Counted from the stretch's first letter, positions 3,124 through 48,410 are shown. The stretch is 48,410 bases of DNA from a virus (IMGVR_UViG_2531839667_000010:1-48410); one strand, 5' to 3'. Numbers and translations: made by a program. The notes: generated from the sequence alone by a model not told the origin.

Positions 3124-3369
3124 GTTTGTCTCACGAGGCGTAGAAACCTCTCCAAAAGCGGTCCGAACCAACCCCGATAGTGTTGGATTTTTTATGCCTG
3201 TTATTCAGTGATTGCACTGTATGCGGTCACACCCCGATCAATGTCGGGAGGGCGACGAATACAACACCCAGCGATGGGGAATAAGTTCGCGGTATCTTTT
3301 GGGCCGTTTCTAACCTCCCGACACCCACTTATGTGGATTTCCGTAGAAAGAAACCAAAAGAGGTCAGTC

Positions 3370-23234: not shown

Positions 23235-24578
23235 TTAAACGGGGGTGTTTAACAAATCGTCAGCGGCATCAGAAGATGCGCTACCTGCTGGGAGTGCACC
23301 GGGTGCTATTTCCATCAAACGATCCAGCGCCGTATCGGTACGCGCCTGGGCACTTTGCGGTGCAGCAGCCAGAATGCGCTGTGCGCTCTCTACCGTCATA
23401 CCCGGCGTTTCGGCCAGTGCTCGCGCCTGTGACTCACGCCCTTTAGCCTCATCGCAGTTCAGGATGCCCATGATGCGGCTATTCTCTGCAGCTACTGCTG
23501 CAGTAACCTGCGCACTGACATCTACAGGGGCCGCTACGGAAGCAATGGTCGTGTCAACGGTAGTGACCTGTTCAGCTGAGGCAGTTGTCTGAGTTGCTGC
23601 CTGGTCAACTGGCTTAGTGGTCACAGCTGAAGCAGAAGGTGATGGCATAGTTCCTCCAAGGGTTGTTTTTTTGCGTCTGTCGAGTGCTTCGCGCATCACG
23701 CCGAGCGCATCGGTATTGTTAACAAGTTCATCCGCCAGTCCGTTATCCAAAGACTCCTGGCCGGAGAATACTGCCGCTTCGGTGTCCAGCACGTCCTGAA
23801 CAGACATGCCGGTATAAGCGGAAACCTTTTCGGCAAACATCTGACGAGTGGCATCGATACGCGTCTGGAAATCAGCACGCACATCTTTCGGAAGCTTTTC
23901 GTAAGGGTTGCCGTCGACCTTGCGATCGCCGCTGTAAATCAGCGTGACCTCAACGCCGTTAGTTTTGAGCGCAGCGCCATAGTTGCTGTGCGCCATCATG
24001 ACCCCAATGGAGCCGGTTCTGGCCGTTTGTGTGACCAGCCGTCGCGATGCCGAACTGGCTATAAGCTGCCCTGCACTGCAGTTCATGTCATTGGCCAGCG
24101 CCCAGATGGGTTTGATATCGCGCATACGGGCTATAATGTCGGCGCAGTCAAACGCCCCGGACACCATTCCACCCGGCGTATCCATATCCAGAAGAATGCC
24201 GTCAACGCCGGGGTCACTGATTGCCTGCTGCAGGCGAGCAATGATCCCGTTGTAACCCGTCATGCCGGAATAAGGCTGAAGCGCACGGGTTTTACTGACC
24301 AGCGTGCCGGAAACCGGCAAGACCGCGATACCATTTGCCACCTGATAGCTGCGTGATGGACGGGGATCCATGTCATCATCCTCACCAAACAGCGCCAGCG
24401 GTTCGGCTATTTGTCCGGCATCAAGCGTGATGCCAGAGACGGTATCTGTCAGCCGGGTGATGCCCAACTGGCCAGCCAGCGCGCAAAAGAAAACCCGCGC
24501 ATAGGCGGGTTCAAGCATCAGCGGCTCATTAAAGGCCATACTGGCAATATGCGGAAGATTACGCAGCTCGTGCGCCAT
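23235..24578 (-). CDS. C: Head maturation protease C (S49/ClpP-like)
   Basis: 447 aa; a scaffold (Nu3) is expected nested in the 3' portion as in lambda. Confidence 0.85.
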   Translation of the reverse strand: MAHELRNLPHIASMAFNEPLMLEPAYARVFFCALAGQLGITRLTDTVSGITLDAGQIAEPLALFGEDDDMDPRPSRSYQVANGIAVLPVSGTLVSKTRALQPYSGMTGYNGIIARLQQAISDPGVDGILLDMDTPGGMVSGAFDCADIIARMRDIKPIWALANDMNCSAGQLIASSASRRLVTQTARTGSIGVMMAHSNYGAALKTNGVEVTLIYSGDRKVDGNPYEKLPKDVRADFQTRIDATRQMFAEKVSAYTGMSVQDVLDTEAAVFSGQESLDNGLADELVNNTDALGVMREALDRRKKTTLGGTMPSPSASAVTTKPVDQAATQTTASAEQVTTVDTTIASVAAPVDVSAQVTAAVAAENSRIMGILNCDEAKGRESQARALAETPGMTVESAQRILAAAPQSAQARTDTALDRLMEIAPGALPAGSASSDAADDLLNTPV

Positions 24579-26151
24579 CTTGCTCCTCCTCGTTTGATTT
24601 TTTCACTCCGGCCTCAAAAGCTGCAGCGGCCCATGCCGGTGGTTTCAGACCCGCAGCACGACGCTCCATGGTTTCCCGGACCTGCTGGGCAAAAATCTCC
24701 TGATAATCATCACCGCGTTTGGCGCACTCTTTTTCATACGTGCTGAGACCTGCCTCAATGAGCATGACGGCCTCCTGTACCTCTTTCAGCCCGTCAATTG
24801 CCATTCGACCAGAGCCAATCCAGTTGGCATTCCCCCAGGCTGTTCTCGCCTCCTGGAAACTGAACCGGGCTTTCGAAGGAAGCGTGACCACGCGGCGGAC
24901 AATCGCCTCTTCAAGCCAGCAAAGAAACATCTGACAGGCCTGTCGGGATGCCACAAACTTGCGACGCCCCATAAAGTACGCCCAGGACTCGTTAGCACTT
25001 GCGCGTGCGGTCGAGTAGCTCATCTGCGAATAGTTTCGCGAAAGCTGCTCATACGACACACCAAGCCCAGCGGCAATATAACGCAGCAGGGACTGTTCAA
25101 AAGTCGAGTAGCCGTTATCGGTATCCTGCGCCGACTGAAGGTTGAGAGAATCACCCGGCAACAGGTGTGGAACCCTTGCCCCACCCAGGCGAACAGGCGC
25201 AGCTGAGTAATAGGACGCCATTTCACCGAGCCAGCCCGTAAGTTTGCTCTGCTGCTCTTTATTATCCGCGCCGAGAATAAAGTCCATCGCCGATTGGGTA
25301 TCCAGTTCACTCTCGATGGTAGCGGCATACATAGCCTTCACTATCGCGCTCTGGAGCTGGGTATTTTGCAGGGTATCGAGCATTTTCATCTGCTCCATCA
25401 CGCTGTAAAACGCATTGGCCCCACGGGTCTGTCCATCCTCCATCGGTTCGAATACATGGATAAATGAAGGTCGACCGCCGGGTAGTTCGCGAGGAATGTA
25501 GGTCCAGTTCTGCGCCATCCAGCCGGGATAACCATCGTCGCTGACGTAATATCCCAGCGCAGCACCGCTATCATTTATTTTCACACCGGCGCGACAGTTC
25601 CGGGTATCACCGATATTATTCGGATTGCTGACGCGCTTCGGACTGACCATTTTGAACTGAGTACGGAAAAGACGCGTTGAATCGCTGTCCCAGGTCGCCT
25701 GCGTGCATAATTCACCGTTAAACGCGTGCATGGCCACACCTTCTCGGATCATCATCGTAAACGTTCGCTTACGCTCGGCATCAATCCCGCAAAAGTCGTC
25801 CTCGGCATACTCATTCCATGCAGCTTCCACATCCCGCGAGAATGCCCGTGAATCCTCCTCATTTATTCCCAGATAACGCCAGCTTGGTCGATAACTGAGT
25901 CTGAAAAATGACCCGACGATGTGGTCCTGGTGGAGCTGCACGGCGTTTGCCGCGTAGCCATTATTTCGCACCAGATCGTCAGCGCGGGCATTTCCGCGAG
26001 AATAGTTGGGTAGGAGTGCGGCATCTGCACTTTCACTCGGCGGATTCCAGCCTCGCAGCTGCCCACCAAACCCGCCTCCACCGCCATGATATCCTGCGTA
26101 TTCCCGAAGGGATGTTTTCCCGTCAGGTCCCACCAAAGATGGTATTTTCAT
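24559..26151 (-). CDS. B: Portal protein B
   Basis: 530 aa; near-identical over long stretches to my recollection of lambda gpB ([12 protein letters not shown]...FGGQLR..., ...[38 protein letters not shown]...). Confidence 0.95.
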
Positions 26152-26354
26152 ACGTAAAACCCTGCTGGCCCCCGGCGTCGTGATGTGGTGCCAACCTGAG
26201 ATTCAAGGTCAGCAATATATTTTTTGAGATCGCTGACTGAAGTGGCTGTAAATTCCACTCTTCGACCGTCTTTCTGTACCGTCGCCACGCGCTTTCCCAT
26301 CATCAGGTCATGTAACGCAGCGCGCGCGGCATCCAGTTCAGTCTGTGTTGCCAT
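26148..26354 (-). CDS. W: Head-tail joining protein W
   Basis: 68 aa between the terminase large subunit and portal; overlapping stop/start codons. Confidence 0.7.
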
Positions 26355-28276
26355 TATTCATCTCCAGATAATGCCCGCGCGTAATCCGCCAGGGTCTTGT
26401 TATTGTTACGGCTGCCTTCTTCCTCCAGCAGGCTGGCCAGAAGTGAATCAAGATTTAGCTGCCAGCGGGATATGCTTATACGCAGCGCCGCCAGTGCATA
26501 AACAAAGCAATCGAGCGCCTCATTTCGTCGTTTTTTGCTGTCCCAGACGATCTTTTTCTTTCCGTCTACCCATTTTTCCACCTGCTCTTCAGCTGTTAGT
26601 TGTTGGGCCTCTGTTAGATCGTAGATTTCTGGGTTATTCGGGAAATGAACCGCTCCCGCCAGCGGCTCGTCTCTTTGCGCCACCAGCGTGAAACGGTTAT
26701 AAATCTGCTCTTTTGCGGTGTCTGTTCCTACCTCTGTGAGGTAAACACCATTCTTGTTACGCTTGCGTGGCATGTTCGCCACTGGCTTTCCATAAACCGA
26801 CGCCCCCTTTATAGGGATCACACGAAACAGACCGTGTTTTTTTGAGCGGTTGTAGACGATGGTGGGATCAATGCCGCCAATATCCCAGCAAGTGCGGGAT
26901 ATAACCATTTCGAGACCGTTCTGGCGCTTATACGTCCTGTTGATCGCTTCATCAACTCGAGCGAGAGTCGACTCATCATCATGACGACCCATAATGATAA
27001 TTTTGTCGATAAGCCAGCTTTCCTCTCCCGGCCCCCATCCCCAAACACGCATTTCGTAACGGTCAAGCTGGGAGTCAATACCCGCTGTCAGATATGCCAC
27101 TCGCTCCGGCACAGACGCTTCAAAGTGCTCTTTTCGTTCCGCTAAAACTTCAGCATCGGGTCGTTCACCTATTTTCGGTTCCCACGTTTCGCCCAGGGTC
27201 GTGTTAACGAAAGTTTTTCGCTTACCCGTATCACCTTTTGTTTTTATCCAGTCCTTGACGATCTGCACCCAGGTTGTGAACGGGCTATATGCGGTCCAGA
27301 TGTGGAATGTAACGCTGTCAGGAGGTTCAATTTCGGTACCGGATGAAGAAAACCAGTTAAGGCCGTCTCGTGTCCAGATACCTGTTTCATCACAAATATA
27401 CCTGGCCTCCAGAAATTCCAGCTCCTGTTGTTTAATCACACAGGCATTGTGTTCACAGAGGTAGTAAACGCTGGCAGGTTCTCCCGGAGACCATTTGAAG
27501 CCAAATGGTGTCTCTTTATCACCGAATTTCAGATACTGCTCTTCCCCACAGTGTGGGCATGGAACATGGAACCGAAGAAAATGTTCAGACTCCTTAGCAG
27601 CTCTTTCTATCTGGCACGTACCTTTGACTTTCGGTGTAGATCCGCGAATGGATTTCGGCCATACAGAACCCTCAATACGCTTATCACCCAGAAAGGTGGG
27701 AGAACCTTCTTTCTCGATGTCATCATCGAAAGCGGCGAGCTCGTCGTAGCCAGCCACATCAACTGATTTTTCACGGTAGTTTTTTGCAGCCTTACCGCCC
27801 AGGCACCAGAAACCACGACCATTCGAGAAACGCTTCATGCTCAGCGTATTGTCCCGGTGTTTTTTACCGTACCAGGGAGCAAGCGCCAGCAACGTCGGAA
27901 TATCACGAATGGTCGGTTCTACATGAGACTTCATGAAGTTTTCAGCATCACCGTCGGTTGGTAACCATATTAGGGAGTTACGCTGTTTATGTTGGATGAA
28001 ATATGCGTAAACGCCGAGCAACATTTTTGAGTAGCCGACACGAGCCGATTTAACGACATTCACCTCGCGAATATAGTCATTACCCATCGCATTCATAATT
28101 GCACACTGAAATGGCAGTGTTTCCCAGCGCCCTTCCTGGTAGGCAGACTCTTTCGGGAGATAATAATTCTCATCTGCCCATTCAACTGCTGTTTGCGGTT
28201 GCGGCCGGTACAGCGAACGTAACCCCGCCCGCGCAGAGTGCTGCAGCCCCTTAACCTGACTGTTCGATATATTCAC
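26354..28276 (-). CDS. A: Terminase large subunit A
   Basis: 640 aa (lambda gpA is 641 as I recall); follows Nu1 with an overlap. Confidence 0.95.
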
Positions 28277-28796
28277 TCAGCAACCCCGGTATCATTTCAT
28301 CCAGCGCAGCTGCCTTGTTCATGGCCTTAATGATGTCCTTCTTGAGGAAATCAATATGTCGGTTCTCCAGCTCCGGGAAGCGCCGCTGAACCGACAGAGG
28401 TATTCCATCGAGAATGCTGGCGATTTCTCCGGCTACCCGCGACAGCACGAACGTGCAGAATGCGGTCTCCACCACTTCAGCGGACTCTTTTGCATTTTTT
28501 AATTCCTGAGCGTCAGCCTGAGCTCGCGTAAGTCGGTGTCGCTCATATTCAATCGTGCCAGGTTGAAGATCGGACTCAGAAGCGATACGGAGATCTTCAA
28601 CTTCCTTCCGCAACTTTTCATTTTCTATAGCTGCATCGCGCGCACTGTACCATTCGATTGCAGCAGCAGATTCAAAGAGAACCTCATTACCTTTGCCACC
28701 ACCGCGGACAACCGGCATACCTTGCTCCTGCCAGTTCTGAATCGTTCGGACGCTTACCCCGAAAATTTCGGATAAGCGTTTTTTGTTAACCTCCAT
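28251..28796 (-). CDS. Nu1: Terminase small subunit Nu1
   Basis: 181 aa; begins MEVNKK and has a wHTH N-terminus, as I recall for lambda Nu1. Confidence 0.9.
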   Translation of the reverse strand: MEVNKKRLSEIFGVSVRTIQNWQEQGMPVVRGGGKGNEVLFESAAAIEWYSARDAAIENEKLRKEVEDLRIASESDLQPGTIEYERHRLTRAQADAQELKNAKESAEVVETAFCTFVLSRVAGEIASILDGIPLSVQRRFPELENRHIDFLKKDIIKAMNKAAALDEMIPGLLSEYIEQSG

Positions 28797-28959
28797 GGCT
28801 TACTCCTGGCAAAAAACAGAGAAAGGAAACAATCAACGGTAAACTTCCGTTTTCCTTGCTCAGCATTTCCTTTCTGGAGAGAGGACGTTTTTAACAAAAA
28901 CAATGAGTAAACAAGAAGAAGAACGGAAATGGCATAAACCAGAAAATTTTCATAAATAG

Positions 28960-28992
28960 CGAGAATCTGCGCGGACGCCGCCCCGTAACAGG
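28960..28992 (-). other. cos site (cosN region) of the lambda-like packaging system
   Basis: Minus strand reads ...TTACGGGGCGGCGTCCGCGCAGATTCTCGCTATTTATGAAAATTTTC..., closely matching my recollection of the lambda cohesive end GGGCGGCGACCT and following sequence; about 170 bp upstream of Nu1. Confidence 0.6.
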
Positions 28993-29044
28993 CCGGATCG
29001 CCGGAAAGGACCCGCAAACGATATTAATTATCATTTGCATATCA

Positions 29045-29773
29045 TCATCGACGGCACTGCCACCAGATAACACCACCGGGTAAACATTCCATCATGATGG
29101 CCGTGCGGACATAGGAAGCCAGTTCATCCATCGCTTTCTTGTCTGCTGCCACTTGCTTTGCGACATCCAGCGCTGCACATTCAGCAGCGTTTTTCAGCAC
29201 GTTTTCAAGCAACGCTTCAATGTTGGTATCAACACCAGGTTTAACTTCGAACTTATCGGCACTGACGGTTACCTTGTTCTGCGCTGGCTCATCACGCTGG
29301 ATACCAAGGCTGATGTTGTAGATATTGGTCACCGACTGAGGTGTTTCGAGTGCCGCTGCGTGAATAGCACCATTTGCAATAGTGGCGTCCTTGATGAATG
29401 GCACTCCATTGCGAATAGGCTCGAAGGAGACGGTGTCACGAATACGCTGGTCCAGCTCGTCGATTGCCTTCTGTGCAACTGAGGTATTAATCTCAACGCC
29501 AAGCGTCATCGAAGCGCAATATTGCTGCTTACCAAAACGCGTATTGACCAGGTGTTCAATGGCAAATTTCTGCCCTTCTGATGTCAGAAAGGTAAAGTGA
29601 TTTTCTTTCTGGTATTCAGTTGCTGTGTGTCTGGTTTCAGCAAAACCCAGCTCGCGCAATTCGGCTGTACCAGATTTAGAAGGCAGGTCACCAGACAGCA
29701 ACGCGCCGCGGAAAAACAGCGCATAGAGCACGTCAGTAGCAGCGCCAGATAGCGTAATAATTTTCTCAGCCAT
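29045..29773 (-). CDS. Hypothetical protein (cos-proximal accessory gene)
   Basis: 242-aa ORF with no family I recognise; start 4 nt after the stop of the upstream 61-aa ORF. Confidence 0.55.
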   Translation of the reverse strand: MAEKIITLSGAATDVLYALFFRGALLSGDLPSKSGTAELRELGFAETRHTATEYQKENHFTFLTSEGQKFAIEHLVNTRFGKQQYCASMTLGVEINTSVAQKAIDELDQRIRDTVSFEPIRNGVPFIKDATIANGAIHAAALETPQSVTNIYNISLGIQRDEPAQNKVTVSADKFEVKPGVDTNIEALLENVLKNAAECAALDVAKQVAADKKAMDELASYVRTAIMMECLPGGVIWWQCRR

Positions 29774-29776
29774 TAT

Positions 29777-29962
29777 TCACTCCTTTTTAAGCCCGGCTAA
29801 CTGGTTGAAGGTAGAAGGACGACCACTGCGTAAGACATGTTTATCATTACCGAGTACACCGATAACAATGCGTGCTTTTCCCTTTTTATCGCTGATGAGC
29901 ATCGTTCCGTCATTACGAATAAACGCCCTCAACCCTGACTTTGGTTTTTTGCCGAATTGCAT
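29777..29962 (-). CDS. Hypothetical small basic protein
   Basis: 61 aa, lysine/arginine rich; tightly linked upstream of the 242-aa ORF. Confidence 0.45.
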   Translation of the reverse strand: MQFGKKPKSGLRAFIRNDGTMLISDKKGKARIVIGVLGNDKHVLRSGRPSTFNQLAGLKKE

Positions 29963-30119
29963 AGCTATTTCCTTTTAGACGTGAGCCTGTCGCACGGCAA
30001 AGCCGCCGAAAGTTTACGGTTTGCCCAGGCTCATAGCTGAAAGACTTTCTTTGATGTGCGCGTGCGATGCGCATAAAAAAGCCCCGCTTACGCGAGGCCG
30101 GACTGTCAGAGGGGGTTAC

Positions 30120-39347: not shown

Positions 39348-39568
39348 GCCGCACCTCCGAGATGCTTCATGTTTTTTCCGGAGCGAAAGGCTATAAGCGG
39401 CATACTGACGCGGTAATTACGGCCCAGCGGTTCACAAATCACCTTCTGGCATTCACGGTCAACCAGGCTAACACGTAGAACATGCCCTGCAGGCGTGGTG
39501 TACCACTGACCGGGGCGAGGACAACGGAAAGTCTGATTGGTAAATCGTTTGAAAATATTCCGGATCAT
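39344..39568 (-). CDS. Hypothetical small protein
   Basis: 74 aa; ATGA overlaps with both neighbours. Confidence 0.45.
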   Translation of the reverse strand: MIRNIFKRFTNQTFRCPRPGQWYTTPAGHVLRVSLVDRECQKVICEPLGRNYRVSMPLIAFRSGKNMKHLGGAA

Positions 39569-40725
39569 TTGCGCCCCCTTACCTCTGAAGAGTTCAGCGA
39601 CGAATGAATAAGACGGGCAAGAAATGCCGCATCGTTAATTCGGTCATACAGACTTACAGCCAGCGGTGATTCAGCTTTTTCCAGCATGGGATAAAGCTGC
39701 TGCAACCAGACCTGATGAATTGATGAAATGTAGGAATAGAGAACGCTGGCGTTATGTGCAACGTCGCTCAGTACAGAGGGATTTGAAAGCTGTTTCTCCA
39801 TCTGGTTAAAGGCATTGATGTATGCCTCTTTGAACCGGGCAGCACGTTTACCAGTGAAGCCCATAGCAAGGAACGCGAAGCCATCGCGGGTTATTTGATA
39901 GCAAGGTAGTTTGCGAGTACCGCCGTTGGGCTGGCGTACCAAAATTGATGTCTCCGCAAAATTGCGGGCACAAAACTCTGGAGAACAATCCAAAATGCGA
40001 ATCTTTTTCAGAACATCGTCATGACGTTTAGAGAAGAAGTCAGCAACAGCCAAAGAAGATGTAACAGCCTGACCATCAACGATGGCAATTTCAGGTTGAG
40101 AGAGGGTTGGGACAGTAGCCATGATGGCAGCCTCCGTATGCAATGGATAACTTCCACCACCGGAAACGCCAATTTCGCTGGTGGTGAACTGAGCAGGGTT
40201 GGCGTAACCGGCGCATACGGAAACCGGCGCACCTTTCGGTGCCCCCACCCAGCCCACCATAATTTGGGTATAGCTGAGTTGTAGCAACAAAAAAGACGCT
40301 AACGCGCCAATTGTCGCCGTATGCAATTCCAGGACGCCAATCCCGGCACCCGCTTTATAAGGTGCCTGAACAGTGTAACGTCCCGGAATGGCAGAATCAA
40401 TGTGCTGGTGGTCCTTCACACTCAACAAAATCACGCCTGAATTTCCACAAAGGACTAAAGCACTCATGCGGGTAGTCTTTGCGAAGATAGATAACGCGCT
40501 GTGTTTCTGGCTCCCAACGAATAACATGGACATAAAGCCCTCTTCCGTCACGAAACCAGCGGTTAAGTTCCTGCACAACTCGCCCCCCACAGTCAGGTAA
40601 AGTTCTCTGTGGTTACTTACAGCCAGGTGATTTGGTAATCTGCATTCATGCCGTAACAACAGGTGTTCAGCGACGCTGACCACCAGCTGTTGCGACAAAC
40701 GGTTATTTGCCGTTAAACTGTTCAT
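39565..40725 (-). CDS. Rha-domain phage regulatory protein (start uncertain)
   Basis: Rha-type domain (...IVDGQAVTSSLAVADFFSKRHDDVLKKI...) in residues about 205-300. The longest ORF starts at 40725, coupled to the upstream stop; an internal ATG at 40121-40123 with a GGAGG Shine-Dalgarno would give a 186-aa Rha protein. Confidence 0.55.
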   Translation of the reverse strand: MNSLTANNRLSQQLVVSVAEHLLLRHECRLPNHLAVSNHRELYLTVGGELCRNLTAGFVTEEGFMSMLFVGSQKHSALSIFAKTTRMSALVLCGNSGVILLSVKDHQHIDSAIPGRYTVQAPYKAGAGIGVLELHTATIGALASFLLLQLSYTQIMVGWVGAPKGAPVSVCAGYANPAQFTTSEIGVSGGGSYPLHTEAAIMATVPTLSQPEIAIVDGQAVTSSLAVADFFSKRHDDVLKKIRILDCSPEFCARNFAETSILVRQPNGGTRKLPCYQITRDGFAFLAMGFTGKRAARFKEAYINAFNQMEKQLSNPSVLSDVAHNASVLYSYISSIHQVWLQQLYPMLEKAESPLAVSLYDRINDAAFLARLIHSSLNSSEVRGRK

Positions 40726-41318: not shown

Positions 41319-41516
41319 TTATGCCGCAGCACTGTTAGTCTTTTGATATAAAGACACGTCAACTTTCAGTTTCCCGTTAGTAATTTTTTCTAACTGGTAC
41401 GCTCGGCCTTCAGGAATAATCTCAGGCCACTCTGAAACAGACGGATGCTTAATACCTAGGGCTTCGGCGGTTTTACAAACTCCGCCGAAATAATTAATCA
41501 CGTCGGATTTCCGCAT
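41319..41516 (-). CDS. cro: Cro-like repressor
   Basis: 65-aa HTH protein divergent from cI across an operator-rich 95-bp spacer. Confidence 0.75.
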   Translation of the reverse strand: MRKSDVINYFGGVCKTAEALGIKHPSVSEWPEIIPEGRAYQLEKITNGKLKVDVSLYQKTNSAAA

Positions 41517-41611: not shown

Positions 41612-42265
41612 ATGATGAACATGAGTGATCGTATTCGCCAAAGGCGAAAAGAACTGAACCTGACACAACAAGCACTGGCTGATTTGACTGGTGTGAACCG
41701 TGTCACGGTTACTGGATGGGAAAAGGACGACTACCAACCAAATGGAGCCAACCTTCAAGCCCTAGCCAACGCACTTAAATGCGATCCTCTGTGGCTTGTT
41801 AGCGGAAAAGGCTCGCCTGAACCAAAGATAAATCTAAAACCTGAAATATTCGCAGTTAAAAAAGTCCCCCTCATCTCGTGGGTTCAGGCGGGTTCATGGA
41901 CAATGACGGAGCCTGGTGTCAGGAAAGAAGATGCTGAAGAGTGGGTTTATACTACCGCCATTGTATCAGAAATGGCATTTGCACTACGGGTCCGTGGTGA
42001 TTCAATGACCAATCCCCTCGGCTCACCATCGATACCAGAAGGTTCTATCGTTATCGTAGAGCCAGATATTATTGATACAGAGTGTATTAACGGAAAAATC
42101 GTTGTTGCCCATATCAATGGTGGGCAAGAAGCGACACTCAAAAAATTTGTTGAGGACTGGCCGAACAGGTATCTCGTCCCACTAAATCCTAACTATAAAA
42201 CTATTGAATGCGGTGAGAACTGCAGAATAGTTGGTCTTGTCAAACAAGTAATAATGGATTTTTGA
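41612..42265 (+). CDS. cI: CI-type prophage repressor (HTH plus S24 LexA-like autopeptidase)
   Basis: 217 aa; N-terminal HTH (LTQQALADLTGV), C-terminal RVRGDSM Ser nucleophile and downstream Lys. Confidence 0.9.
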   Translation: MMNMSDRIRQRRKELNLTQQALADLTGVNRVTVTGWEKDDYQPNGANLQALANALKCDPLWLVSGKGSPEPKINLKPEIFAVKKVPLISWVQAGSWTMTEPGVRKEDAEEWVYTTAIVSEMAFALRVRGDSMTNPLGSPSIPEGSIVIVEPDIIDTECINGKIVVAHINGGQEATLKKFVEDWPNRYLVPLNPNYKTIECGENCRIVGLVKQVIMDF

Positions 42266-42286: not shown

Positions 42287-42311
42287 AAACCGGGGTATCC
42301 CCGGTTTTTTT
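42287..42311 (+). terminator. Rho-independent terminator after cI
   Basis: Stem ccggggtatccccgg followed by T7. Confidence 0.7.
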
Positions 42312-42327
42312 ATGAGCCTATCTTTTT

Positions 42328-42385
42328 ATGTAGGATAACCAACATAAACTCTTGACACTCACATGTTGGATATCCTACATTTGTT
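42328..42385 (+). promoter_or_regulatory. OL operators and pL promoter
   Basis: Two copies of the 18-bp operator (ATGTAGGATAACCAACAT 42328-42345; ATGTTGGATATCCTACAT 42363-42380) flank TTGACA (42352-42357); the second operator overlaps the -10 region. Confidence 0.6.
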
Positions 42386-42445
42386 TTTAGAGTAGCCGCC
42401 GGTGGCGTATGAATGACCGGATGATTCGCTGACAGAAAACTTAGG

Positions 42446-42829
42446 TTGGGGGTAGAGGTTTACATGAATCATTTATTCACATGCTCATTTTGCGGAGCAA
42501 CCGAACTGGGAGCGATAAAGATCGTCGCAAAAGGTGGTAAGGACGAACCTGCCATCTGTTCGGAATGCGTAGTCACATGTGTAGAAAAAATGATCCTGAC
42601 TAAAAAATCAGAGGCTGAAAAACCAACCTCTGATAACGAAATAATATCAGTCGATAAAAAACTATTTAAAGAGCTTCTTCAGCTTGTCCTCAACCATCCT
42701 GATTTCGGAAGTAAGCTGGCTGCTGTTGACATTGATAGTAGCTCCACATCGACAAGTGAAACTTTTGTTCGACTTGAGCCAAGCGATTTTCTTCTTCGTC
42801 TTAGTGCCGCACTTAGGGCATGCGGGTAA
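42446..42829 (+). CDS. ClpX-type C4 zinc-finger protein, first gene of the pL operon
   Basis: 127 aa; N-terminus FTCSFCGATELGAIKIVAKGGKDEPAICSECVVTC resembles the ClpX zinc-binding domain (CSFCG...ICxEC) as I recall; GAGG Shine-Dalgarno 6 nt before the ATG; no AAA+ domain. Confidence 0.55.
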   Translation: MGVEVYMNHLFTCSFCGATELGAIKIVAKGGKDEPAICSECVVTCVEKMILTKKSEAEKPTSDNEIISVDKKLFKELLQLVLNHPDFGSKLAAVDIDSSSTSTSETFVRLEPSDFLLRLSAALRACG

Positions 42830-42942
42830 CGTAATTTCCTGGTTATCAAAAGCGCCCATAAACATCCCTCTTGGTTGTGTGAGAACACCAAGATACCACC
42901 GCGCCTGATGTGGTTAAAAGCAGGCTAAAGCAATAACAAGTA

Positions 42943-43003
42943 ACTCCCTGTTCTGGCGGCCCGGTGTTTTCCCGTGTATTTCCGGTAACCGCCAGCCTTT
43001 TTC
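42943..43003 (+). terminator. Terminator-like hairpin after the first pL gene (tL1-like position)
   Basis: Stem ctggcgg/ccgccag around a 29-nt loop, followed by CCTTTTTC. Confidence 0.3.
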
Positions 43004-43171
43004 AGGGCACAACAGAAAAGGGCATCACCGGGCGACGGGCTCATAACCCAATCCACCCGGGCAAAAAGAAAGCGGTCTCTGCAAGCCGCCGACCAATGCA
43101 GGTGCCCTTCTCTGTTGTGTATGGAGAAACTAACTTTTTAGCGCCGGTGCAGAGGCGTTGAGGAACCGAGA

Positions 43172-44089
43172 ATGAACAATCCGTTTTTCAAAAATATGTT
43201 GGTGTATCGCATTAGTCGCGATTTCACCATCAACCAGGAAGAGCTGGAACAGCAGCTTGAACTATTTCGCTTCACTCCATGCGGTAGCCAGGATATGGCA
43301 AAAACCGGTTGGGTATCACCACTTGGTCAGCTGTCAGATCGCTTGCATCACACTGTCAATAATCAAGTGTTGTTGGTTATTCGCCGGGAAGAAAAAATAC
43401 TGCCATCTCCTGTCATTGCTGAAGAACTGCGCAAGCGTGTGTCGCGTCTGGAATCCGATCAGGGGCGTCGCCTCAAAAAAACTGAGAAAGATTCGCTGCG
43501 TGATGAAGTGTTGCACTCCCTGCTTCCTCGGGCGTTCTCCAAAAACTCGACTGTTAGTTTGTGGATCAACGTCACCGACGGTCTGATCATGGTTGATGCA
43601 GCCAGCGCTAAACGTGCCGAAGACTCACTGGCCCTGCTTCGTAAAACTCTCGGTTCTCTCCCGGTGGTACCGCTGACTATGGAAACGCCGATCTAACTAA
43701 CTATGACCGAATGGGTTCGTTCCGGTAGTGCGCCTGCTGGCTTTGGCCTGGGTGATGAAGCCGAACTGAAAGCTATTCTTGAAGATGGCGGTATTGGACG
43801 CTTTAAAAAACAGACTCTGGTCAGTGACGAAATTCATGTGCATCTGGAAGCTGGCAAAGTAGTTACAAAGCTGTCTATCGACTGGCAACAGCGCATTCAG
43901 TTCGTTCTTTGCGATGACGGCAGCATCAAACGCCTTAAGTTCTCTAATGAGATTACAGAACAAAACGACGATATCGACCGTGAGGATGCGGCTCAGCGGT
44001 TCGACGCTGACTTTGTTCTGATGACCGGCGAGCTTATCTCTCTCATTAACGGATTAACAACCTCTCTCGGCGGCGAAGCCAAGCGATAA
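43172..44089 (+). pseudogene. rdgC: RdgC-like recombination-associated protein, interrupted by one in-frame TAA
   Basis: Listed ORFs 43172..43696 and 43703..44089 are in the same frame, separated only by TAA at 43694-43696; together they resemble full-length RdgC as I recall ([11 protein letters not shown]..., ...[19 protein letters not shown]...). Confidence 0.75.
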
Positions 44090-44170
44090 ACACCAGGCAA
44101 CAATTACCCCCATAAGCATGGGTTGGGTTGCTGCACGCTAAATTCAGCAATTCATTAATTTAATGGCGCG

Positions 44171-44737
44171 GTGCAGCGCGCCAATATGGAGAAAACCATG
44201 AGCTACATTCAGACATTATCCGGCAAACATTTTAATTACCTCGATATCCAACAGGACGATATCGTGATCGAGGATATTGCTACCGCGTTGTCTCATATCT
44301 GCCGCTTTGCAGGGCATCTTCCTGAGTTTTACAGTGTCGGCCAGCATAGCGTTTTAACCAGCCACCTCGTTCCGCAGGAGTTTGCATTAGAAGCACTGCT
44401 TCATGATGCTGCTGAAGCCTACCTGCAGGACATCCCCTCCCCACTTAAGCGCCTGCTTCCGGATTACCAGGCAATCGAAGCTCGTGTGGACGCAGCCATT
44501 CGGCAGAAGTTCGGTCTACCAACTGAGCAACACCCAACCGTGAAATATGCCGACCTGGTGATGCTCGCCAGCGAACGCCGCGATTTTGAGATTGACGAAG
44601 GTTCCATTTGGCCATGCCTCGAGGGAGTTGTCCCAACGGATTTATTCATTATCAACCCAGTTCGTCCTGGCCAGTCATACGGCATGTTCATCAATCGCTT
44701 TAACGAGTTGATGGAGCAGCGCCAATGCGCCGCATGA
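44171..44737 (+). CDS. HD-domain phosphohydrolase
   Basis: His and His-Asp motifs (SVGQHSVL..., ALLHDAAEAY); likely true start at ATG 44198 (GGAG Shine-Dalgarno). Confidence 0.7.
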   Translation: MQRANMEKTMSYIQTLSGKHFNYLDIQQDDIVIEDIATALSHICRFAGHLPEFYSVGQHSVLTSHLVPQEFALEALLHDAAEAYLQDIPSPLKRLLPDYQAIEARVDAAIRQKFGLPTEQHPTVKYADLVMLASERRDFEIDEGSIWPCLEGVVPTDLFIINPVRPGQSYGMFINRFNELMEQRQCAA

Positions 44738-44901
44738 AGGTAAAAGAACTCGTAGCGGAGGCGTTTGCCTCCGTTGCTGAATTGCCACCAAAGCATGCGC
44801 CGCTTATGCGCGAAGTCGCCACCAGACTGGACGCTACGTTCGCAGCATTAAAAGAGTCTCTGGTGCAACTGGAACAGGAACGTAAAGATAAAACGCCATG
44901 A
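44734..44901 (+). CDS. Small protein (55 aa), not in the ORF track, coupled on both sides
   Basis: ATG overlaps the HD gene stop (ATGA) and its stop overlaps the next start (ATGA); product MKVKELVAEAFASVAELPPKHAPLMREVATRLDATFAALKESLVQLEQERKDKTP. Confidence 0.4.
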   Translation: MKVKELVAEAFASVAELPPKHAPLMREVATRLDATFAALKESLVQLEQERKDKTP

Positions 44902-45152
44902 CCGTATTTGAATATCTCCAGGCTCATCCGAATACCACCAGCGGTGAAATCGCCAAAGGTATGAACAAAAAGACCCCAGCGGTCGCCGGAGCATTATCTC
45001 AGCTCTATGGCACCGGTCGGATCGTGAAGTCTGGTGTTCGCAAGGGTATTCCAACATACCGCATTAACGATATGCCGTTTGGTTGCAGTAACAGCCTAAC
45101 CATGATGTTTAACCAGCTCTTGAGCAGAGCCAGACAAGGAGCAGCCCAATGA
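44898..45152 (+). CDS. Hypothetical small protein, possible winged-helix
   Basis: 84 aa; ATGA-coupled within the pL operon. Confidence 0.5.
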   Translation: MTVFEYLQAHPNTTSGEIAKGMNKKTPAVAGALSQLYGTGRIVKSGVRKGIPTYRINDMPFGCSNSLTMMFNQLLSRARQGAAQ

Positions 45153-45496
45153 CAGCACTCAACAAACAGGCGCTGCGTGAAGAATTCCAGTTCATGCAGG
45201 ACAACTATAGCGACCCGGCAGACCACGATCGGCAGGTGATTTACATCGAGGCGGAGGCGCTGCTGGATGAGTTGGAAGCCAAAGACTCAACGATAGCAGC
45301 ACAACAACATGAGATCCGTATGTTGCTGAATGCGCTTGAGGAAAAACCATGCCCGAAATGCAACGACACAGGAATGACTGATAGTGGCGGCACGCAGCCA
45401 TGGGGCGAGCCGATTGAGATTGAATGCGACTGCCGACAGCAGGATGCCAACACCGCAGAACTTGTAGCCGCTGGCATTGGCGTGAAGGGGGAGTGA
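45149..45496 (+). CDS. Hypothetical protein with C-terminal CxxC...CxC zinc-ribbon motif
   Basis: 115 aa; CPKCNDTG...ECDC. Confidence 0.5.
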   Translation: MTALNKQALREEFQFMQDNYSDPADHDRQVIYIEAEALLDELEAKDSTIAAQQHEIRMLLNALEEKPCPKCNDTGMTDSGGTQPWGEPIEIECDCRQQDANTAELVAAGIGVKGE

Positions 45497-45497
45497 G

Positions 45498-45806
45498 ATG
45501 GATAAATTAATCAAACCTACCGCCAAAGGTAAATATGACGGTTCATGTGATTATCTTTGCTCGGAAGATGCGCGATTCATCGTTATGCGCGGCGATTATA
45601 CGGAAGCGGAAATAATTCAGGCTTCTGTGTCCCAAGATGTAATCGACTCGGATGGTGCGGCTGATTTTGCAAGTAGCGCCCGCTATTATCAGTGCTGGTA
45701 CAAAGTTAGCCCAATAGGTGGTCAGGATGGCTATTCAGGCTGGCATCATCCTCGTGATTCGCCGTGTCGCGGTGCATATTTCGCATCAGTTTTGCAATGG
45801 GATTAA
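45498..45806 (+). CDS. Hypothetical protein
   Basis: 102-aa ORF in the operon. Confidence 0.45.
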   Translation: MDKLIKPTAKGKYDGSCDYLCSEDARFIVMRGDYTEAEIIQASVSQDVIDSDGAADFASSARYYQCWYKVSPIGGQDGYSGWHHPRDSPCRGAYFASVLQWD

Positions 45807-45819
45807 GGAGGACTAACCC

Positions 45820-46287
45820 ATGACAACTAACAACCACCCGGCGCACGGTCCTGTATCACTCGATCGCCTGCACCAGATACGCGAACACCTGCTGCATGAT
45901 ACCCAATACTCAAACGGCGGGAACAGAGCCTACATTCTCGCTGATGTATTGAAGGTGATTGATGGGGCTATTGCCCGCGAGCTGGTACGCCGTGAGCATG
46001 CAGCGTGGTCACAGGCTACTTTCGGCGATGTCGGTCCAGTTGGTCCGCTGAAGCACCTTTCCAAAGAAGCGCTCGAGGCTGCTGCTGAACCAGGCGACCT
46101 TAGCGAATGGGCTGACATGCAATTCCTGTTATGGGATGCGCAACGTCGTGCCGGTATCAGTGATGAGCAGATTACCCAGGCAATGATAAAAAAGCTGGCT
46201 ATAAATAAGGTTCGCCAATGGCCTGAGCCGAAAGACGGGGAACCTCGATTGCATATCAAAGAACAGTCAGAGCAGGAGAAAAAATAA
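45820..46287 (+). CDS. Putative nucleotide pyrophosphohydrolase-like protein (MazG/DUF550-type)
   Basis: 155 aa; assignment from weak recollection of prophage dATP/dGTP pyrophosphohydrolase-like proteins. Confidence 0.35.
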   Translation: MTTNNHPAHGPVSLDRLHQIREHLLHDTQYSNGGNRAYILADVLKVIDGAIARELVRREHAAWSQATFGDVGPVGPLKHLSKEALEAAAEPGDLSEWADMQFLLWDAQRRAGISDEQITQAMIKKLAINKVRQWPEPKDGEPRLHIKEQSEQEKK

Positions 46288-46289
46288 GA

Positions 46290-46544
46290 ATGTTTAGCCT
46301 GATTCGGCGCGGTCAAATCTACACGGACAGTAGCAACTGGCCCGTAATTATCCATAGCTGTAGTGATCACTCGGTCCGAATTAAACGCAATGATGGCGAG
46401 CTGAGAACGATTAGCATCAAACGCTTTAACGAAGATTTTGAACGAGTGGAGCATGATGAGTATCGCAAAATATGTGCCGAAATAGAGCAGGAAACAAACC
46501 TGAAAAACCTACGTGCGATGCGTCGCGGCAAGATTACTGAATAG
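46290..46544 (+). CDS. Hypothetical small protein
   Basis: 84-aa ORF in the operon. Confidence 0.45.
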   Translation: MFSLIRRGQIYTDSSNWPVIIHSCSDHSVRIKRNDGELRTISIKRFNEDFERVEHDEYRKICAEIEQETNLKNLRAMRRGKITE

Positions 46545-46565
46545 CCAAACAGGAGAATATTTAAC

Positions 46566-47138
46566 GTGAACAACTTAATGATCGACCTTGAGTCCATGGG
46601 CAAAAAACCGAATGCCCCTATTGTCTCCATTGGTGCCGTATTCTTCGATCCGCAAAGCGGTGAACTGGGTCAGGAGTTTTACACCGCTGTTAATCTTGAA
46701 AGCGCTATGGAGCAGGGAGCGGTGCCGGATGGTGACACTATTCTGTGGTGGTTAAGACAAAGCTCAGAAGCACGATCAGCAATCTGTGTTGATGATGCGA
46801 TGCCGATATCATCTGCCCTATCTGAACTGAGCCATTTCATTAATCAGCATGCAGACAATACAAAATATTTAAAAGTCTGGGGTAACGGGGCCACCTTCGA
46901 CAACGTAATTTTACGTGGAGCTTACGAGCGAGCAGGACAAATCTGCCCGTGGGCGTACTGGAATGACCACGATGTACGCACGATCGTTACGCTTGGGCGT
47001 TCCATCGGATTCGCCCCCAAAATGGACATGCCTTTCGATGGCGAACGGCACAACGCCCTGGCCGATGCCCGTCATCAGGCAAAATATGTTTCCGCTATCT
47101 GGCAGAAATTAATTCCTGCCACCAGCACAGAATTATGA
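46566..47138 (+). CDS. DEDD-family 3'-5' exonuclease (DnaQ-like)
   Basis: N-terminal IDLES (Exo I D-x-E) and C-terminal HNALADARH (Exo III) motifs; AGGAGA Shine-Dalgarno. Confidence 0.75.
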   Translation: MNNLMIDLESMGKKPNAPIVSIGAVFFDPQSGELGQEFYTAVNLESAMEQGAVPDGDTILWWLRQSSEARSAICVDDAMPISSALSELSHFINQHADNTKYLKVWGNGATFDNVILRGAYERAGQICPWAYWNDHDVRTIVTLGRSIGFAPKMDMPFDGERHNALADARHQAKYVSAIWQKLIPATSTEL

Positions 47139-47147
47139 TTTTCCCGG

Positions 47148-47456
47148 GTGCAGCCGGTTTTGATGGAGAAAATTATGAACACCTTGTTTTTACTGATGGC
47201 TGAATTCAATACCCCTAACATTGAACTCTCAGCAGTTAGCCAAAAGTACTTTGGCATGAGTCCAGCCACGGCAGAAGCAAAAGCAAACGCTTGTAAGTTG
47301 CCCGTTCCAACATATCGCATCGGCACATCACAAAAAGCAAAACGTTGCATCAATATTCAGGATCTTGCGGAATACATAGACAAAAGACGAGAAGAAGGAC
47401 GTATCGAGTGGGAACAGGTCAGAACAGGCAAACAGAAGGGCAAAGAACATCACTAA
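47148..47456 (+). CDS. PrtN/AlpA-like small DNA-binding protein, possible excisionase
   Basis: Likely start at ATG 47175 (GGAG Shine-Dalgarno), about 93 aa; resembles excisionase-like PrtN-family regulators as I recall; last gene of the pL operon. Confidence 0.5.
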   Translation: MQPVLMEKIMNTLFLLMAEFNTPNIELSAVSQKYFGMSPATAEAKANACKLPVPTYRIGTSQKAKRCINIQDLAEYIDKRREEGRIEWEQVRTGKQKGKEHH

Positions 47457-47486
47457 AGAAAAAACCCGCCTAAAGGCGGGTTTTCA
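47457..47486. terminator. Bidirectional rho-independent terminator
   Basis: A-run, stem cccgcc/ggcggg (loop taaa), T-run. Confidence 0.7.
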
Positions 47487-47503
47487 AAAAGCACCAGCTA
47501 TGA

Positions 47504-47677
47504 TCATGCTGCTTTGCGACGACGAAGCTTACCCTGCTGCTCTTTACCAGAGACAGTAGCGTGAGTGAACGCATTAGGAGCAGCCTTCATCAGAACTTCA
47601 ACAGCAGCACCCATACCTGCGAATGCTTTCATTGTGTCGAACTTAACCTGTGGCTTGGTTGCTTTTTGATCTTTCAT
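47504..47677 (-). CDS. Small basic protein (57 aa), not in the ORF track
   Basis: ATG at 47675-47677 preceded by GGGAG; product MKDQKATKPQVKFDTMKAFAGMGAAVEVLMKAAPNAFTHATVSGKEQQGKLRRRKAA; ends at the bidirectional terminator. Confidence 0.35.
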   Translation of the reverse strand: MKDQKATKPQVKFDTMKAFAGMGAAVEVLMKAAPNAFTHATVSGKEQQGKLRRRKAA

Positions 47678-47737
47678 AGAAAACTCCCGAGACAGTAAAG
47701 GCGTCTCTAACCCTCTCTTTAAAGCTAGCTTGTTTCG

Positions 47738-47758
47738 CTAACTTATGCCAATCGATCA
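47738..47758. repeat. Perfect palindrome CCAATCGA-tcatg-TCGATTGG
   Basis: 8-bp inverted repeat with 5-bp spacer in the intergenic region between the two minus-strand genes. Confidence 0.4.
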
Positions 47759-47873
47759 TGTCGATTGGTGACATCGTTTCTTAGTAGTTTAAGCACAAAA
47801 CGACTGCCATAGATGTACCTTTAAGGTAATCTGGACGGGTATCCTACAATTTGTAGACCCTTCTCGTCTATAC

Positions 47874-48410
47874 CTACTGAGCAAATTTAAGAAAGATATC
47901 CTGCAGCTCATCAATGACTGCAGACATCACATAACCGCACTGTTCCATGCGGAAACCAAAAGACTCGTAATACTGCACCAGTTCTGGTACTGGCTCTACA
48001 ATGTGGACAACTTTACATTCAACAGCTTTACAAAATATAAAAGCACTCATAAGAGTGAGTAAAACCATGCGCCCTTTCAATGGGTGAGATTCATCTTCTC
48101 TAGAAAACCTTTCGATCATATGGATACGAAAGATGTTTTCTTCAACCCCATAAACACAAATTGCTGCTCCTGATGGTATTCCCTGAACCCGACCTTGCTG
48201 AACAAGTTTTATGCAGAACTCATACTTTTCTCTGGAGTTGCCATAGGTGCTTAACGCATAGTCCCATTCAAGCTCACCATAGCCACCACACAGAATCTTG
48301 TAATCATCATCACTGAGCGGACCAACAGCAAGAGGTAAGCCGACATGATCAATAATCAACTGGATATTGTTACGTACAGATTGACCTATCTCGTCTAGGG
48401 TAAGCATCAT
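47874..48410 (-). CDS. Hypothetical protein, possibly GNAT-like acyltransferase fold
   Basis: 178 aa; C-terminal ...PLKGRMVLLTL...VVHIVEPVPELVQYYESFGF loosely resembles GNAT motifs; start coincides with the window edge. Confidence 0.4.
   Translation of the reverse strand: MMLTLDEIGQSVRNNIQLIIDHVGLPLAVGPLSDDDYKILCGGYGELEWDYALSTYGNSREKYEFCIKLVQQGRVQGIPSGAAICVYGVEENIFRIHMIERFSREDESHPLKGRMVLLTLMSAFIFCKAVECKVVHIVEPVPELVQYYESFGFRMEQCGYVMSAVIDELQDIFLKFAQ

Follow-up and report, generated by a model that had tools for sequence, protein, structure and literature searches.

Why should the early leader of a temperate phage carry more RNA structure than a spacer between two genes needs? The question is raised by a lambdoid prophage of Escherichia coli, represented here by a 48,410-nucleotide (nt) stretch of viral DNA (IMGVR_UViG_2531839667_000010; hereafter, 'the window' designates this whole stretch). 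A preliminary description, made from the sequence alone, had drawn attention to the gap between the first gene behind the leftward early promoter pL and rdgC, in which a terminator-like hairpin is followed by a long-range inverted repeat, and had suggested a conditional terminator, a put- or nut-like antitermination RNA or a small RNA. The gap has the length given there, 342 bp, measured between the stop codon (42829) of an open reading frame (ORF) for a ClpX-type zinc-finger protein and the rdgC ATG (43172). It holds a three-way RNA junction, one arm of which matches the anticodon arm of initiator tRNA at 14 successive nucleotides. By the tests applied, this element belongs to an undescribed family of leader RNAs of temperate phages, in which it represents the early left operon.

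Structure of the junction

The long-range inverted repeat is present as two 17-nt arms, 43008-43024 and 43103-43119, which are complementary at 16 of 17 positions and lie 78 nt apart. The pairing is therefore as first described, whereas the left arm had been placed one base off, at 43007-43023. As RNA, the repeat forms a helix, P1 (43007-43026 / 43101-43120), with 19 pairs and one A.C mismatch over its 20 positions. The segment enclosed by P1 folds into two hairpins, P2 and P3, giving a three-way junction with hardly any unpaired junction bases. The 127-nt element has a folding z-score of -4.0, and none of 200 shuffled sequences folds as well. Its parts are listed with neighbouring features in Table 1.

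Conservation and covariation

BLAST searches matched the 55 nt at 43008-43062, with at least 90% identity, to many phages in which the flanking sequence fails to align, including SfV, SfII, SfIV, mEp460, Stx2a and Stx2c phages, phiNP and others. We compiled 50 distinct element variants into an alignment, A2; homologous loci that were fetched are designated by L-numbers, and covariance-model searches covered these fetched loci. Unguided RNAalifold on A2 recovers P1, P2 and the base of P3, with 8 pairs that show changes on both sides. When the structure is specified, 92.4% of cells are paired, as against 38-52% when the partners are slid by 1-3 columns, and 7 pairs carry double changes (58 cells). 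The covariation score is 0.165, compared with 0.089 in shuffled alignments, and 0 of 500 shuffles reach 0.165, a control to be read with the caveat that kinship alone can lift unstructured sequences above shuffles. It is nevertheless hard to find another explanation for the slid-register control and for double changes of the transversion type.

Compensatory changes occur in all three helices. Five P1 pairs have them, exchanging C-G for A-U (12 sequences), G-C for C-G (20) and A-U for G-C (5 and 7); the P2 basal helix exchanges G-C for A-U at two pairs (3 and 9 sequences); and the pairs at the base of P3 (columns 59-62 / 94-97) show both G-C/A-U and G-C/C-G changes, while P3 loops and lengths vary among variants. 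Folding and covariation across homologues, one of the checks that had been proposed for this region, thus find the pairing kept by compensatory change.

The structure also has a strand. Cells that pair as G.U on the plus strand only number 39, against 11 A.C cells, which would be G.U on the minus strand; 6 of these 11 share a single position, where most variants have a mismatch in any case. A covariance model built from A2 scores 99 bits on the plus strand and 31 bits on the minus strand. Because of the G.U asymmetry, these strand scores and the U-run of the preceding terminator, which is on the plus strand, we conclude that the element is an RNA-level structure and part of the plus-strand pL transcript. 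The impression that this spacer is more structured than an ordinary one was correct, and its z-score of -4.0 and compensatory changes mark a selected structured region of that transcript.

A coding role was considered and rejected: neither the plus-strand ORF at 42964-43161 nor the minus-strand ORF at 42925-43056 is conserved, and P3 indels are not multiples of three.

An initiator-tRNA anticodon arm at the tip of P2

Columns 32-42 and 44-53 of A2 are invariant, and the arm reads G-AC-GGG-CUCAUAA-CCC-AAUC-C. Fourteen contiguous nucleotides of it, CGGGCTCATAACCC (43036-43049), recur without change in the anticodon arm of E. coli tRNAfMet (metY of strain K-12), an identity that takes in three G-C pairs and the CUCAUAA loop. 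Three consecutive G-C pairs set initiator tRNA apart from elongator tRNAs. The GAC that stands 5' of GGG is found in every phage-type match in GTDB, although the search pattern left those bases unconstrained.

This apical module is fixed on basal helices that are swapped between classes of the element: CCGGG/CCCGG in the window, CUGUCUG/CGGGCAG in a class from late operons, CUACCUG/CGGGUAG in L175, CCUGAUG/CAUCAGG in two loci beside a tRNA gene (L180 and L188) and GUAUG/CAUGC in a Pantoea locus (L168). Because the basal helix is replaced while the module is unchanged, the module would appear to be the functional end of the element, and whole-helix replacement is the strongest evidence for this reading.

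The resemblance ends at the anticodon arm. ARAGORN predicts 0 tRNA genes in the window, L150 and L168, the Rfam tRNA model does not match, and compared with a tRNA gene the element has no cloverleaf, D arm or T loop. The metY-nusA leader was rejected as a template, the match being limited to the anticodon arm.

Elsewhere, a Gammaproteobacteria metagenome-assembled genome, DTU037 (L162), has at ~3650-3740 a tRNAfMet-like gene (...GTCGGGCTCATAACCC-AATCC-TGCTCCCGCAACCA) that is without the variable loop and most of the T arm and has the CCCAATCC join of the phage element. This may be an initiator tRNA with a deletion or of hybrid origin, perhaps left by an integration event.

A leader terminator precedes the junction

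The terminator-like hairpin noticed earlier holds up as well. It occupies 42953-42995 on the plus strand, with an inner CCGG/CCGG pair, and is followed by CC and then UUUUU (42998-43002); it folds with -18.3 kcal/mol (z = -2.97), and a simple terminator scan overlooked it on account of a loop longer than 8 nt. Of 96 distinct contexts upstream of early-left elements, 93 (97%) have a hairpin (median -21.4 kcal/mol) with a T4-7 run that ends just before P1. The first hairpin is thus a conserved intrinsic terminator by its sequence and predicted fold. Since the element starts within a few bases of the terminator U-run, it is present only in transcripts from polymerases that pass the terminator (or pL-proximal ones).

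One of the three exceptions, the Mixta locus L139, has cI, the cI terminator, a pL-like promoter (TTGATT-18-TATAGT) and the element in direct succession, with the element starting ~25 nt past the predicted pL start and yfdP- and yfdQ-like genes next. On the strength of this order, we take the minimal layout to be pL, junction, a hairpin P4 and the first gene; where genes have been inserted ahead of the junction, as they have in the window, the terminator accompanies them.

Two of the functions first suggested do not fit this arrangement. A conditional terminator would be expected to have a conserved alternative pairing; the sole upstream inverted repeat that reaches the terminator stem is 73% complementary over 15 nt, in sequence that varies among homologues, and the structured element follows the terminator instead of preceding it. 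Nor is an independent small RNA supported, as no promoter-like site is present on the plus strand at 42830-43003. A search of the window for a U-run terminator after the junction found none.

Some leaders have tandem modules. In phage LLS (L129) these lie at 1560-1700 and 1845-2000, and others are seen in L144, L145, L167 and L003 (1265-1330). The first module comprises a terminator and a long hairpin with a near-identical closing helix (CACAAC...GUUGUG) and another interior, followed by conserved GUGGURAAUGCGGCU..GCGCACG; the second is the canonical terminator and junction. The window has a P1 5' arm like that of the first LLS module and an interior like that of the second, which suggests recombination inside P1.

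Distribution and relatives

Pattern scans located the element in >140 viral contigs. It is also found in species representatives of Escherichia, Shigella, Citrobacter, Enterobacter, Kosakonia, Mixta, Buttiauxella, Leclercia, Phytobacter, Pseudescherichia, Pseudocitrobacter, Erwinia and Klebsiella, and matches in a phage collection add one Klebsiella phage and one Salmonella phage. A closely related version of the module (SfV-type), comprising terminator, junction and P4, is carried by 2495 of 5426 complete E. coli genomes (46%), with up to 5 copies per genome. When the window's own gap was used as a 346-bp query, matches were obtained in 306 genomes, covering at least 80% of the query in 38; six E. 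coli records (strains O68:H12 97.3, AH02, AH04 and CT01) match this query at 100% identity, and a prophage of Nissle 1917 at 98.8%. In K-12, the prophage CPS-53 carries yfdP-yfdQ and has the leader deleted, so K-12 data sets are uninformative here.

Current annotation places protein-coding sequences across the terminator and junction, on either strand, as hypothetical proteins: SfII_35 (L130 1614-1952), mEp460_036 (L004 1421-1564) and F1055_0036 (L127 1076-1648). Most of the listed SfV-type matches in RefSeq E. coli genomes have a 'hypothetical protein' feature. The indels and covariation in the RNA argue that such overlapping coding sequences are mis-calls.

Relatives of the junction occur outside the early-left operon. 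In the late class (L150, L174-L187), the junction lies between a Q antiterminator gene (PF03589, E = 9e-45) and a holin gene (PF16931), ~55 nt past a tR'-like terminator, with a short P1 (GGCCC/GGGCC) and a P3 that is a long hairpin with a UCCUAA loop. In L175, the junction follows directly after a terminator. In L180 and L188, it begins 6 nt past a phage tRNA-Thr(UGU) gene, in the order NinG, Q (PF06323, E = 6e-87), tRNA, junction, terminator, holin, lysozyme and terminase; the terminator in these tRNA-adjacent relatives is ~70 nt downstream. The Pantoea locus combines a terminator, a long P1 (CACAAUACCAAAGGCG / CGCCUUUCAUAUUGUG) and a second terminator ~115 nt downstream, and gives a full-length covariance-model match of 44.6 bits. 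Other junction forms are seen in the metagenomic viral contigs L190 and L203.

Downstream of the junction

P1 is followed in the window by a conserved, single-stranded 13-mer, UGGAGAAACUAAC. The 13-mer recurs in the pR operon (40740-40728, minus strand), after a G/U-rich stretch at the end of a cII-like (YmfL-family) ORF, where it forms a ribosome-binding site 2 nt before the ATG at 40725. Among the fetched loci, the 13-mer TGGAGAAACTAAC has 128 copies beside the element and 90 at the pR-operon site, and the SfV-type element and the pR site of the window have exactly 16 nt in common. The pR-operon site is coding sequence and ribosome-binding site, and its region is unstructured (z = -0.68). 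The two sites may share a ribosome-binding-site cassette or a recombination linker, or may form a nutL/nutR-like pair.

Next comes P4. A hairpin with a (U/G)UGCAG or GGCAG loop stands after the 13-mer in nearly all early-left homologues, with stems that vary. Beyond P4 lie a Shine-Dalgarno sequence and the start codon of the first gene, which varies (rdgC-like, YfdP-like or others). In the window, the lower stem of P4 pairs with the rdgC Shine-Dalgarno sequence GAGGA (43160-43164).

Several interactions in this region were considered and rejected. Pairing of the CAU loop with the downstream start codon reaches 5-7 bp for YfdP-like genes (AUGAG, encoding Met-Ser) and is not seen for rdgC or others, and we judged it coincidental. 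P3-P4 kissing loops (CUGCA/UGCAG in the window) are not kept in the abundant CAGUCA type and other types; pairing of the P3 loop with the GGAG 13-mer has an implausible geometry in short P3 forms; and a mini-ORF after P1 has neither a conserved frame nor a conserved stop, the Klebsiella type having ACG. Targets in trans of UUAUGAG are no more frequent than chance, at 4 sites against 5.2 expected; a 9-nt match at 42310-42318, in the cI terminator tail, is absent from SfV.

Genomic setting

The pL-like promoter, which is predicted to drive the transcript of the element, has the same hexamers and spacing as pR, and operator-like palindromic repeats lie on both sides of it.

Table 1 Features of the element and its surroundings in the window
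Feature	Position	Strand	Description
Intrinsic-terminator hairpin and U5	42953-43002	+	Stem CUGGCGG 42953-42959 / CCGCCAG 42989-42995; ends 4 nt before P1
P1 5' arm	43007-43026	+	C/A-rich; junction-closing helix
P2 arm	43028-43060	+	Basal helix CCGGG/CCCGG (43028-43032 / 43056-43060), asymmetric internal loop, apical hairpin
P2 apical hairpin	43037-43049	+	GGG-CUCAUAA-CCC; loop 43040-43046; 3-bp stem and 7-nt loop in every prediction
P3 arm	43061-43099	+	Variable hairpin; long form in the window, apical loop CUCUGCAA
P1 3' arm	43101-43120	+	G/U-rich; from inverted repeat and folding
13-mer	43122-43134	+	UGGAGAAACUAAC; single-stranded; GGAG is Shine-Dalgarno-like; conserved; directly after P1
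P4 hairpin	43135-43164	+	Core GCGCC 43141-43145 / GGCGU 43154-43158, loop GGUGCAGA; -14.2 kcal/mol
cro	41319-41516	-	Divergent from cI
cI	41612-42265	+	Divergent from cro
pR promoter	41577-41548	-	TTGACA-18-TACATT
pL-like promoter (predicted)	42352-42381	+	TTGACA-18-TACATT
ClpX-type zinc-finger protein ORF	42464-42829	+	First ORF behind pL; Pfam E = 7.6e-6
rdgC	43172-44089	+	ATG at 43172

The first gene behind pL is itself overlapped by an ORF on the opposite strand (42859-42662). The plus-strand ORF at 42464-42829 is named ClpX-type zinc-finger by PGAP, and the domain match takes in only its first ~40 amino acids; its C-terminal two thirds may be spurious. The minus-strand ORF encodes a 65-amino-acid CPxC...CxC zinc-ribbon protein with a weak Lar-like match, and has a good Shine-Dalgarno sequence and its own strong terminator (42634-42607, minus strand). 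Similar small minus-strand genes occupy the equivalent site in SfII (SfII_36) and SfV.

Two further motifs lie in the pL leader. A pL-proximal motif, AGTAGCCGCC.GG.GGC.TATGAA....CCGGATGATTCG.TGA, at 42391-42432 (plus strand) in the window and ~674-715 in L003, is common to the window prophage and SfV despite unrelated first pL ORFs, and is a candidate for what lets polymerase pass leader terminators. Motif A, at 42895-42925 (plus strand), reads ACCAC-CGC-GCCUG-AU-GUGGU-UAAAAG-CAGGC and is compatible with an H-type pseudoknot; phage LLS has it at a distance of ~10 nt from the predicted pL start, as the only element ahead of the first leader terminator. The pseudoknot was rejected: motif A is found in 35 of 131 leaders only, its near-zero variation yields no covariation, and its minimum-free-energy z-score is -0.48.

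The rdgC gene of the window has an in-frame TAA at 43694 (E175*), a G-to-T change relative to the O68:H12 97.3 prophage, from which it differs at 3 positions in 918 bp; relatives have an intact 305-amino-acid RdgC. On the pR side, a C4 antisense RNA (40177-40264, minus strand, 80.7 bits) and an isrK RNA (40289-40365, minus strand, 61.2 bits) fall within a predicted 386-amino-acid ORF (39565-40725), the N-terminal half of which is therefore probably non-coding. Their arrangement is that of the P1/Gifsy-type immI-like module preceding a Rha-like antirepressor. Far from the element, positions 3243-3330 (plus strand) match the sRNA-Xcc1 family with 62.6 bits, above a gathering threshold of 53.

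Comparison with known RNAs

The element does not belong to a family that we could recognise. At gathering thresholds, Rfam 15 identifies only C4, isrK and sRNA-Xcc1 in the window, all away from the element, and at E<=10 the stretch 42300-43400 yields only a 15-bit chance match to a microRNA. On the late-class, tRNA-adjacent, Pantoea and L175 loci, Rfam gives one tRNA and two sub-threshold matches away from the junction. A literature search for the motif sequences of the element, including the supplements of the Hfq-CRAC paper on enterohaemorrhagic E. coli (EHEC), returned no occurrence among the papers searched, and a keyword search for initiator-tRNA mimics or tRNA-like leaders in prophages returned nothing relevant.

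The put RNAs of phage HK022 are the obvious comparison within lambdoid early operons. The put RNA attaches to the zinc-binding domain of beta' and counteracts both pausing and termination. Each put site is ~70 nt long with two stem-loops, and the sites are present in both early operons, upstream of the terminators that they suppress, with putL just downstream of pL (PMC9378689). Our element is likewise a cis-encoded structured RNA in the early-operon leader of a lambdoid phage that has no N gene and encodes no protein partner alongside. In contrast to put, it is a 100-130-nt three-way junction, present in one copy and mostly behind a terminator, with relatives in Q-controlled late leaders. A covariance model (R1) found no match in HK022 24000-30000, the stretch expected to hold pL and putL, and blastn-short against the same 24-30 kb gave only 9-12-nt chance matches.

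The suggestion of a put- or nut-like RNA is not borne out in that form, nor does the window have a second copy, a junction in the pR operon, an N-like gene between pL and the element or a kept boxA. ORFs between pL and the element encode the ClpX-type zinc-finger protein, SfV orf33 and similar products, none with an arginine-rich N terminus. The boxA consensus (CGCUCUUA / UGCUCUUU) is not kept in the P1 3' arm, where the window has TGCCCTT and the commonest type TGTTCTT, a TGCTCTT-like stretch that covaries with the 5' arm, keeping the pairing. The P4 loops, (U/G)UGCAG or GGCAG, are unlike the GNRA-like pentaloop of lambda-type boxB.

Prophage anti-sRNAs were a further candidate. AgvB and AsxR are such RNAs in EHEC (PMC4104026), and the element resembles them in being prophage-encoded and in having a GcvB-target-like CACAACA and ARN-type repeats in the P1 5' arm, but is unlike them in having neither its own promoter nor its own terminator. 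We rejected this identification: the Rfam models do not match, and the CACAACA is buried in the 20-bp helix.

Three other systems supply precedents for parts of the element. The thrS operator of E. coli is a leader hairpin that copies the anticodon arm of tRNAThr and controls the gene of its binder, ThrRS. Our element, too, has a leader hairpin that copies the anticodon arm of one tRNA, such that a tRNA-recognising factor could bind the mRNA; unlike the operator, it is phage-borne, its downstream genes are variable and unrelated to initiator tRNA, and its partner is putative. The late leader, from Q/tR' to the lysis genes, is a common site for phage tRNA genes, as in ileZ-argN-argO of Stx phages. 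The late-class relatives share with these genes their position, an anticodon-loop sequence and synthesis only by antiterminated polymerase, but they have no cloverleaf, and the closing helix is 20 bp in the window form. Finally, phage mRNAs contain RNase III processing hairpins, such as the T7 R sites and the lambda N-leader hairpin. A long imperfect helix between leader and first cistron is common to these hairpins, the metY-nusA leader and our element, and the metY operon has initiator tRNA, terminators and a processing hairpin together before the mRNA. The helix described here differs in enclosing an invariant sequence-specific arm, the short-P1 relatives are no possible substrates, and cleavage is in our case only proposed.

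A model for the element and its alternatives

We tentatively favour, while stopping short of calling it probable, a model in which the element is a leader module made by terminator-passing polymerases, gives the operon mRNA a base-paired 5' side and presents an initiator-tRNA mimic to a factor that recognises tRNAfMet. Read-through would leave a short U/A-rich linker between the terminator hairpin and P1; an RNase E cut in this linker, or an RNase III cut in the 20-bp P1, would separate the upstream leader from the operon mRNA, which would be left with a fully base-paired, and hence stabilising, 5' side. The junction would then show its mimic of the initiator anticodon arm to a conserved host factor or to the factor of another mobile element. 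Candidate partners are the 30S P site with IF3, the methionyl-tRNA synthetase MetRS and an enteric VapC-type, tRNAfMet-specific anticodon nuclease. In short-P1 relatives beside tRNA genes, the junction may come free as a stable tRNA-like RNA of small size. In LLS, L144 and L167, terminators are followed by long hairpins with almost the same P1 and another interior, which fits a processing or stabilising unit made of terminator and closing helix.

Several observations weigh against this model. A 14-mer match to some tRNA has a chance probability of ~1e-3 by a rough estimate, and the identity was noticed post hoc. The anticodon-like stem has 3 pairs and then an internal loop, compared with 5 pairs in tRNAfMet. 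A Salmonella F1055/Klebsiella subgroup, of which the F1055 part also has CCCC-AUCC, carries CUCAUUA, with U for A at loop position 37, a change unexpected in a strict mimic of the tRNA. The late-operon relatives have a P1 of only ~5 bp, which rules out RNase III cleavage as a step common to the whole family. The conservation of the 13-mer and of the P4 loop is also left unexplained.

In an extended version, which we consider unlikely, the junction would be a phage-made decoy of the initiator-tRNA anticodon arm, produced in bulk once pL or pR' transcription passes the terminator, which titrates or misdirects a host factor acting on tRNAfMet. Enteric VapC cleaves tRNAfMet in the anticodon stem-loop (PMC4705866), and a nuclease of this type could be the most attractive target; the alternative is occupancy of the 30S P site. 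Such a decoy would mean that translation initiation is protected or re-programmed in lytic growth. In several variants, P3 has other anticodon-like 7-nt loops (for example, CUCCUAA, CUGUCAA and CUGGUAA), and if the decoy reading were true the variable P3 would be a second, fast-evolving decoy.

Among the competing explanations, an antitermination RNA of the put (or Bacillus EAR) kind survives best, although it too seems improbable to us. The nascent junction would bind RNA polymerase and make it resist downstream terminators and Rho, letting phages that have no N gene express a long leftward early operon. The position in the pL leader speaks for it, including in Mixta, where the ~25-nt distance from the predicted pL start recalls putL (PMC9378689), as do the lack of an N-like arginine-rich ORF between pL and the element, the terminators that Pantoea L168 and L188 have between the junction and the next gene, and the invariance of the arm across many genera, which fits a conserved host machine. 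However, in 93 of the 96 contexts the element comes after the strong leader terminator rather than before it; there is a single copy and no junction in the pR operon; the model finds no match in HK022 24-30 kb; and no strong plus-strand intrinsic terminator is predicted in 43130-48410. The role is further weakened because relatives follow tR'-like terminators in phages that encode a bona fide Q, from two Pfam families.

In another alternative, the element would be a cis-acting translational operator of the first gene, with the 13-mer, a possible mini-ORF and P4 setting translation and the junction serving as a docking platform for a ribosome or regulator. We give this rather little credence. 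The 13-mer does contain GGAG and is a real ribosome-binding site in the pR operon, the lower stem of P4 in the window pairs with the rdgC Shine-Dalgarno sequence, AUG or GUG follows P1 in most variants, and the element lies 40-90 nt before a start codon in several classes. Against this, the downstream genes vary (rdgC-like, YfdP-like, holins and others), P4 hides the Shine-Dalgarno sequence in some variants only, the frame and length of the mini-ORF are not conserved and the Klebsiella type, with ACG, has no start codon, the tRNA-Thr-adjacent copy precedes a terminator and not a gene, and complementarity of the CAU loop to downstream start regions is inconsistent.

A function of the DNA itself, as a mosaic-junction linker for homologous exchange of early-gene modules or as a folded-strand or att-like recombination site, is very unlikely. 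It would account for the 55-nt core being >90% identical in phages with flanks of no detectable similarity, for the variability of both upstream immunity modules and downstream gene sets, and for the window's 5' arm resembling the first LLS module and its interior the second, the pattern of recombination inside P1; moreover, the P1 ends (CACAAC...GTTGTG) match the integron attC cores RYYYAAC/GTTRRRY at 6 of 7 positions each, and anticodon arms are common integrase targets. It would not account for compensatory changes in three helices or a G.U asymmetry favouring a single transcribed strand; unlike the variable regions of attC, the interior arm does not vary, the vicinity has no integron-type integrase and the element is not at prophage ends. 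Equally hard to credit is a decaying phage tRNA-Met fragment carried without a function of its own: the exact GACGGGCTCATAACCCG is in many phage tRNA-Met genes, one class adjoins a tRNA gene and ARAGORN calls no tRNA, but the arm is invariant while adjoining helices change compensatorily, the junction architecture is kept in at least 5 scaffolds and many genera, and a neutral remnant would not persist so in 46% of E. coli genomes. What probability these explanations leave belongs to something else.

Implications

The ingredients of the favoured model have precedents, in the leader RNAs of lambdoid early operons, in anticodon-arm mimicry of the thrS type and in tRNA genes behind tR'; their combination is without precedent. 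If the model is true, nearly half of sequenced E. coli genomes, and many other Enterobacterales, carry an unannotated, strongly selected prophage RNA that copies the part of initiator tRNA recognised by the ribosome, MetRS and tRNAfMet-specific toxins. Many 'hypothetical protein' calls, such as SfII_35, mEp460_036 and F1055_0036, would be corrected. The element would be a third kind of leader RNA in lambdoid early operons, beside nut and put, and could be a tRNA-arm decoy of temperate phages.

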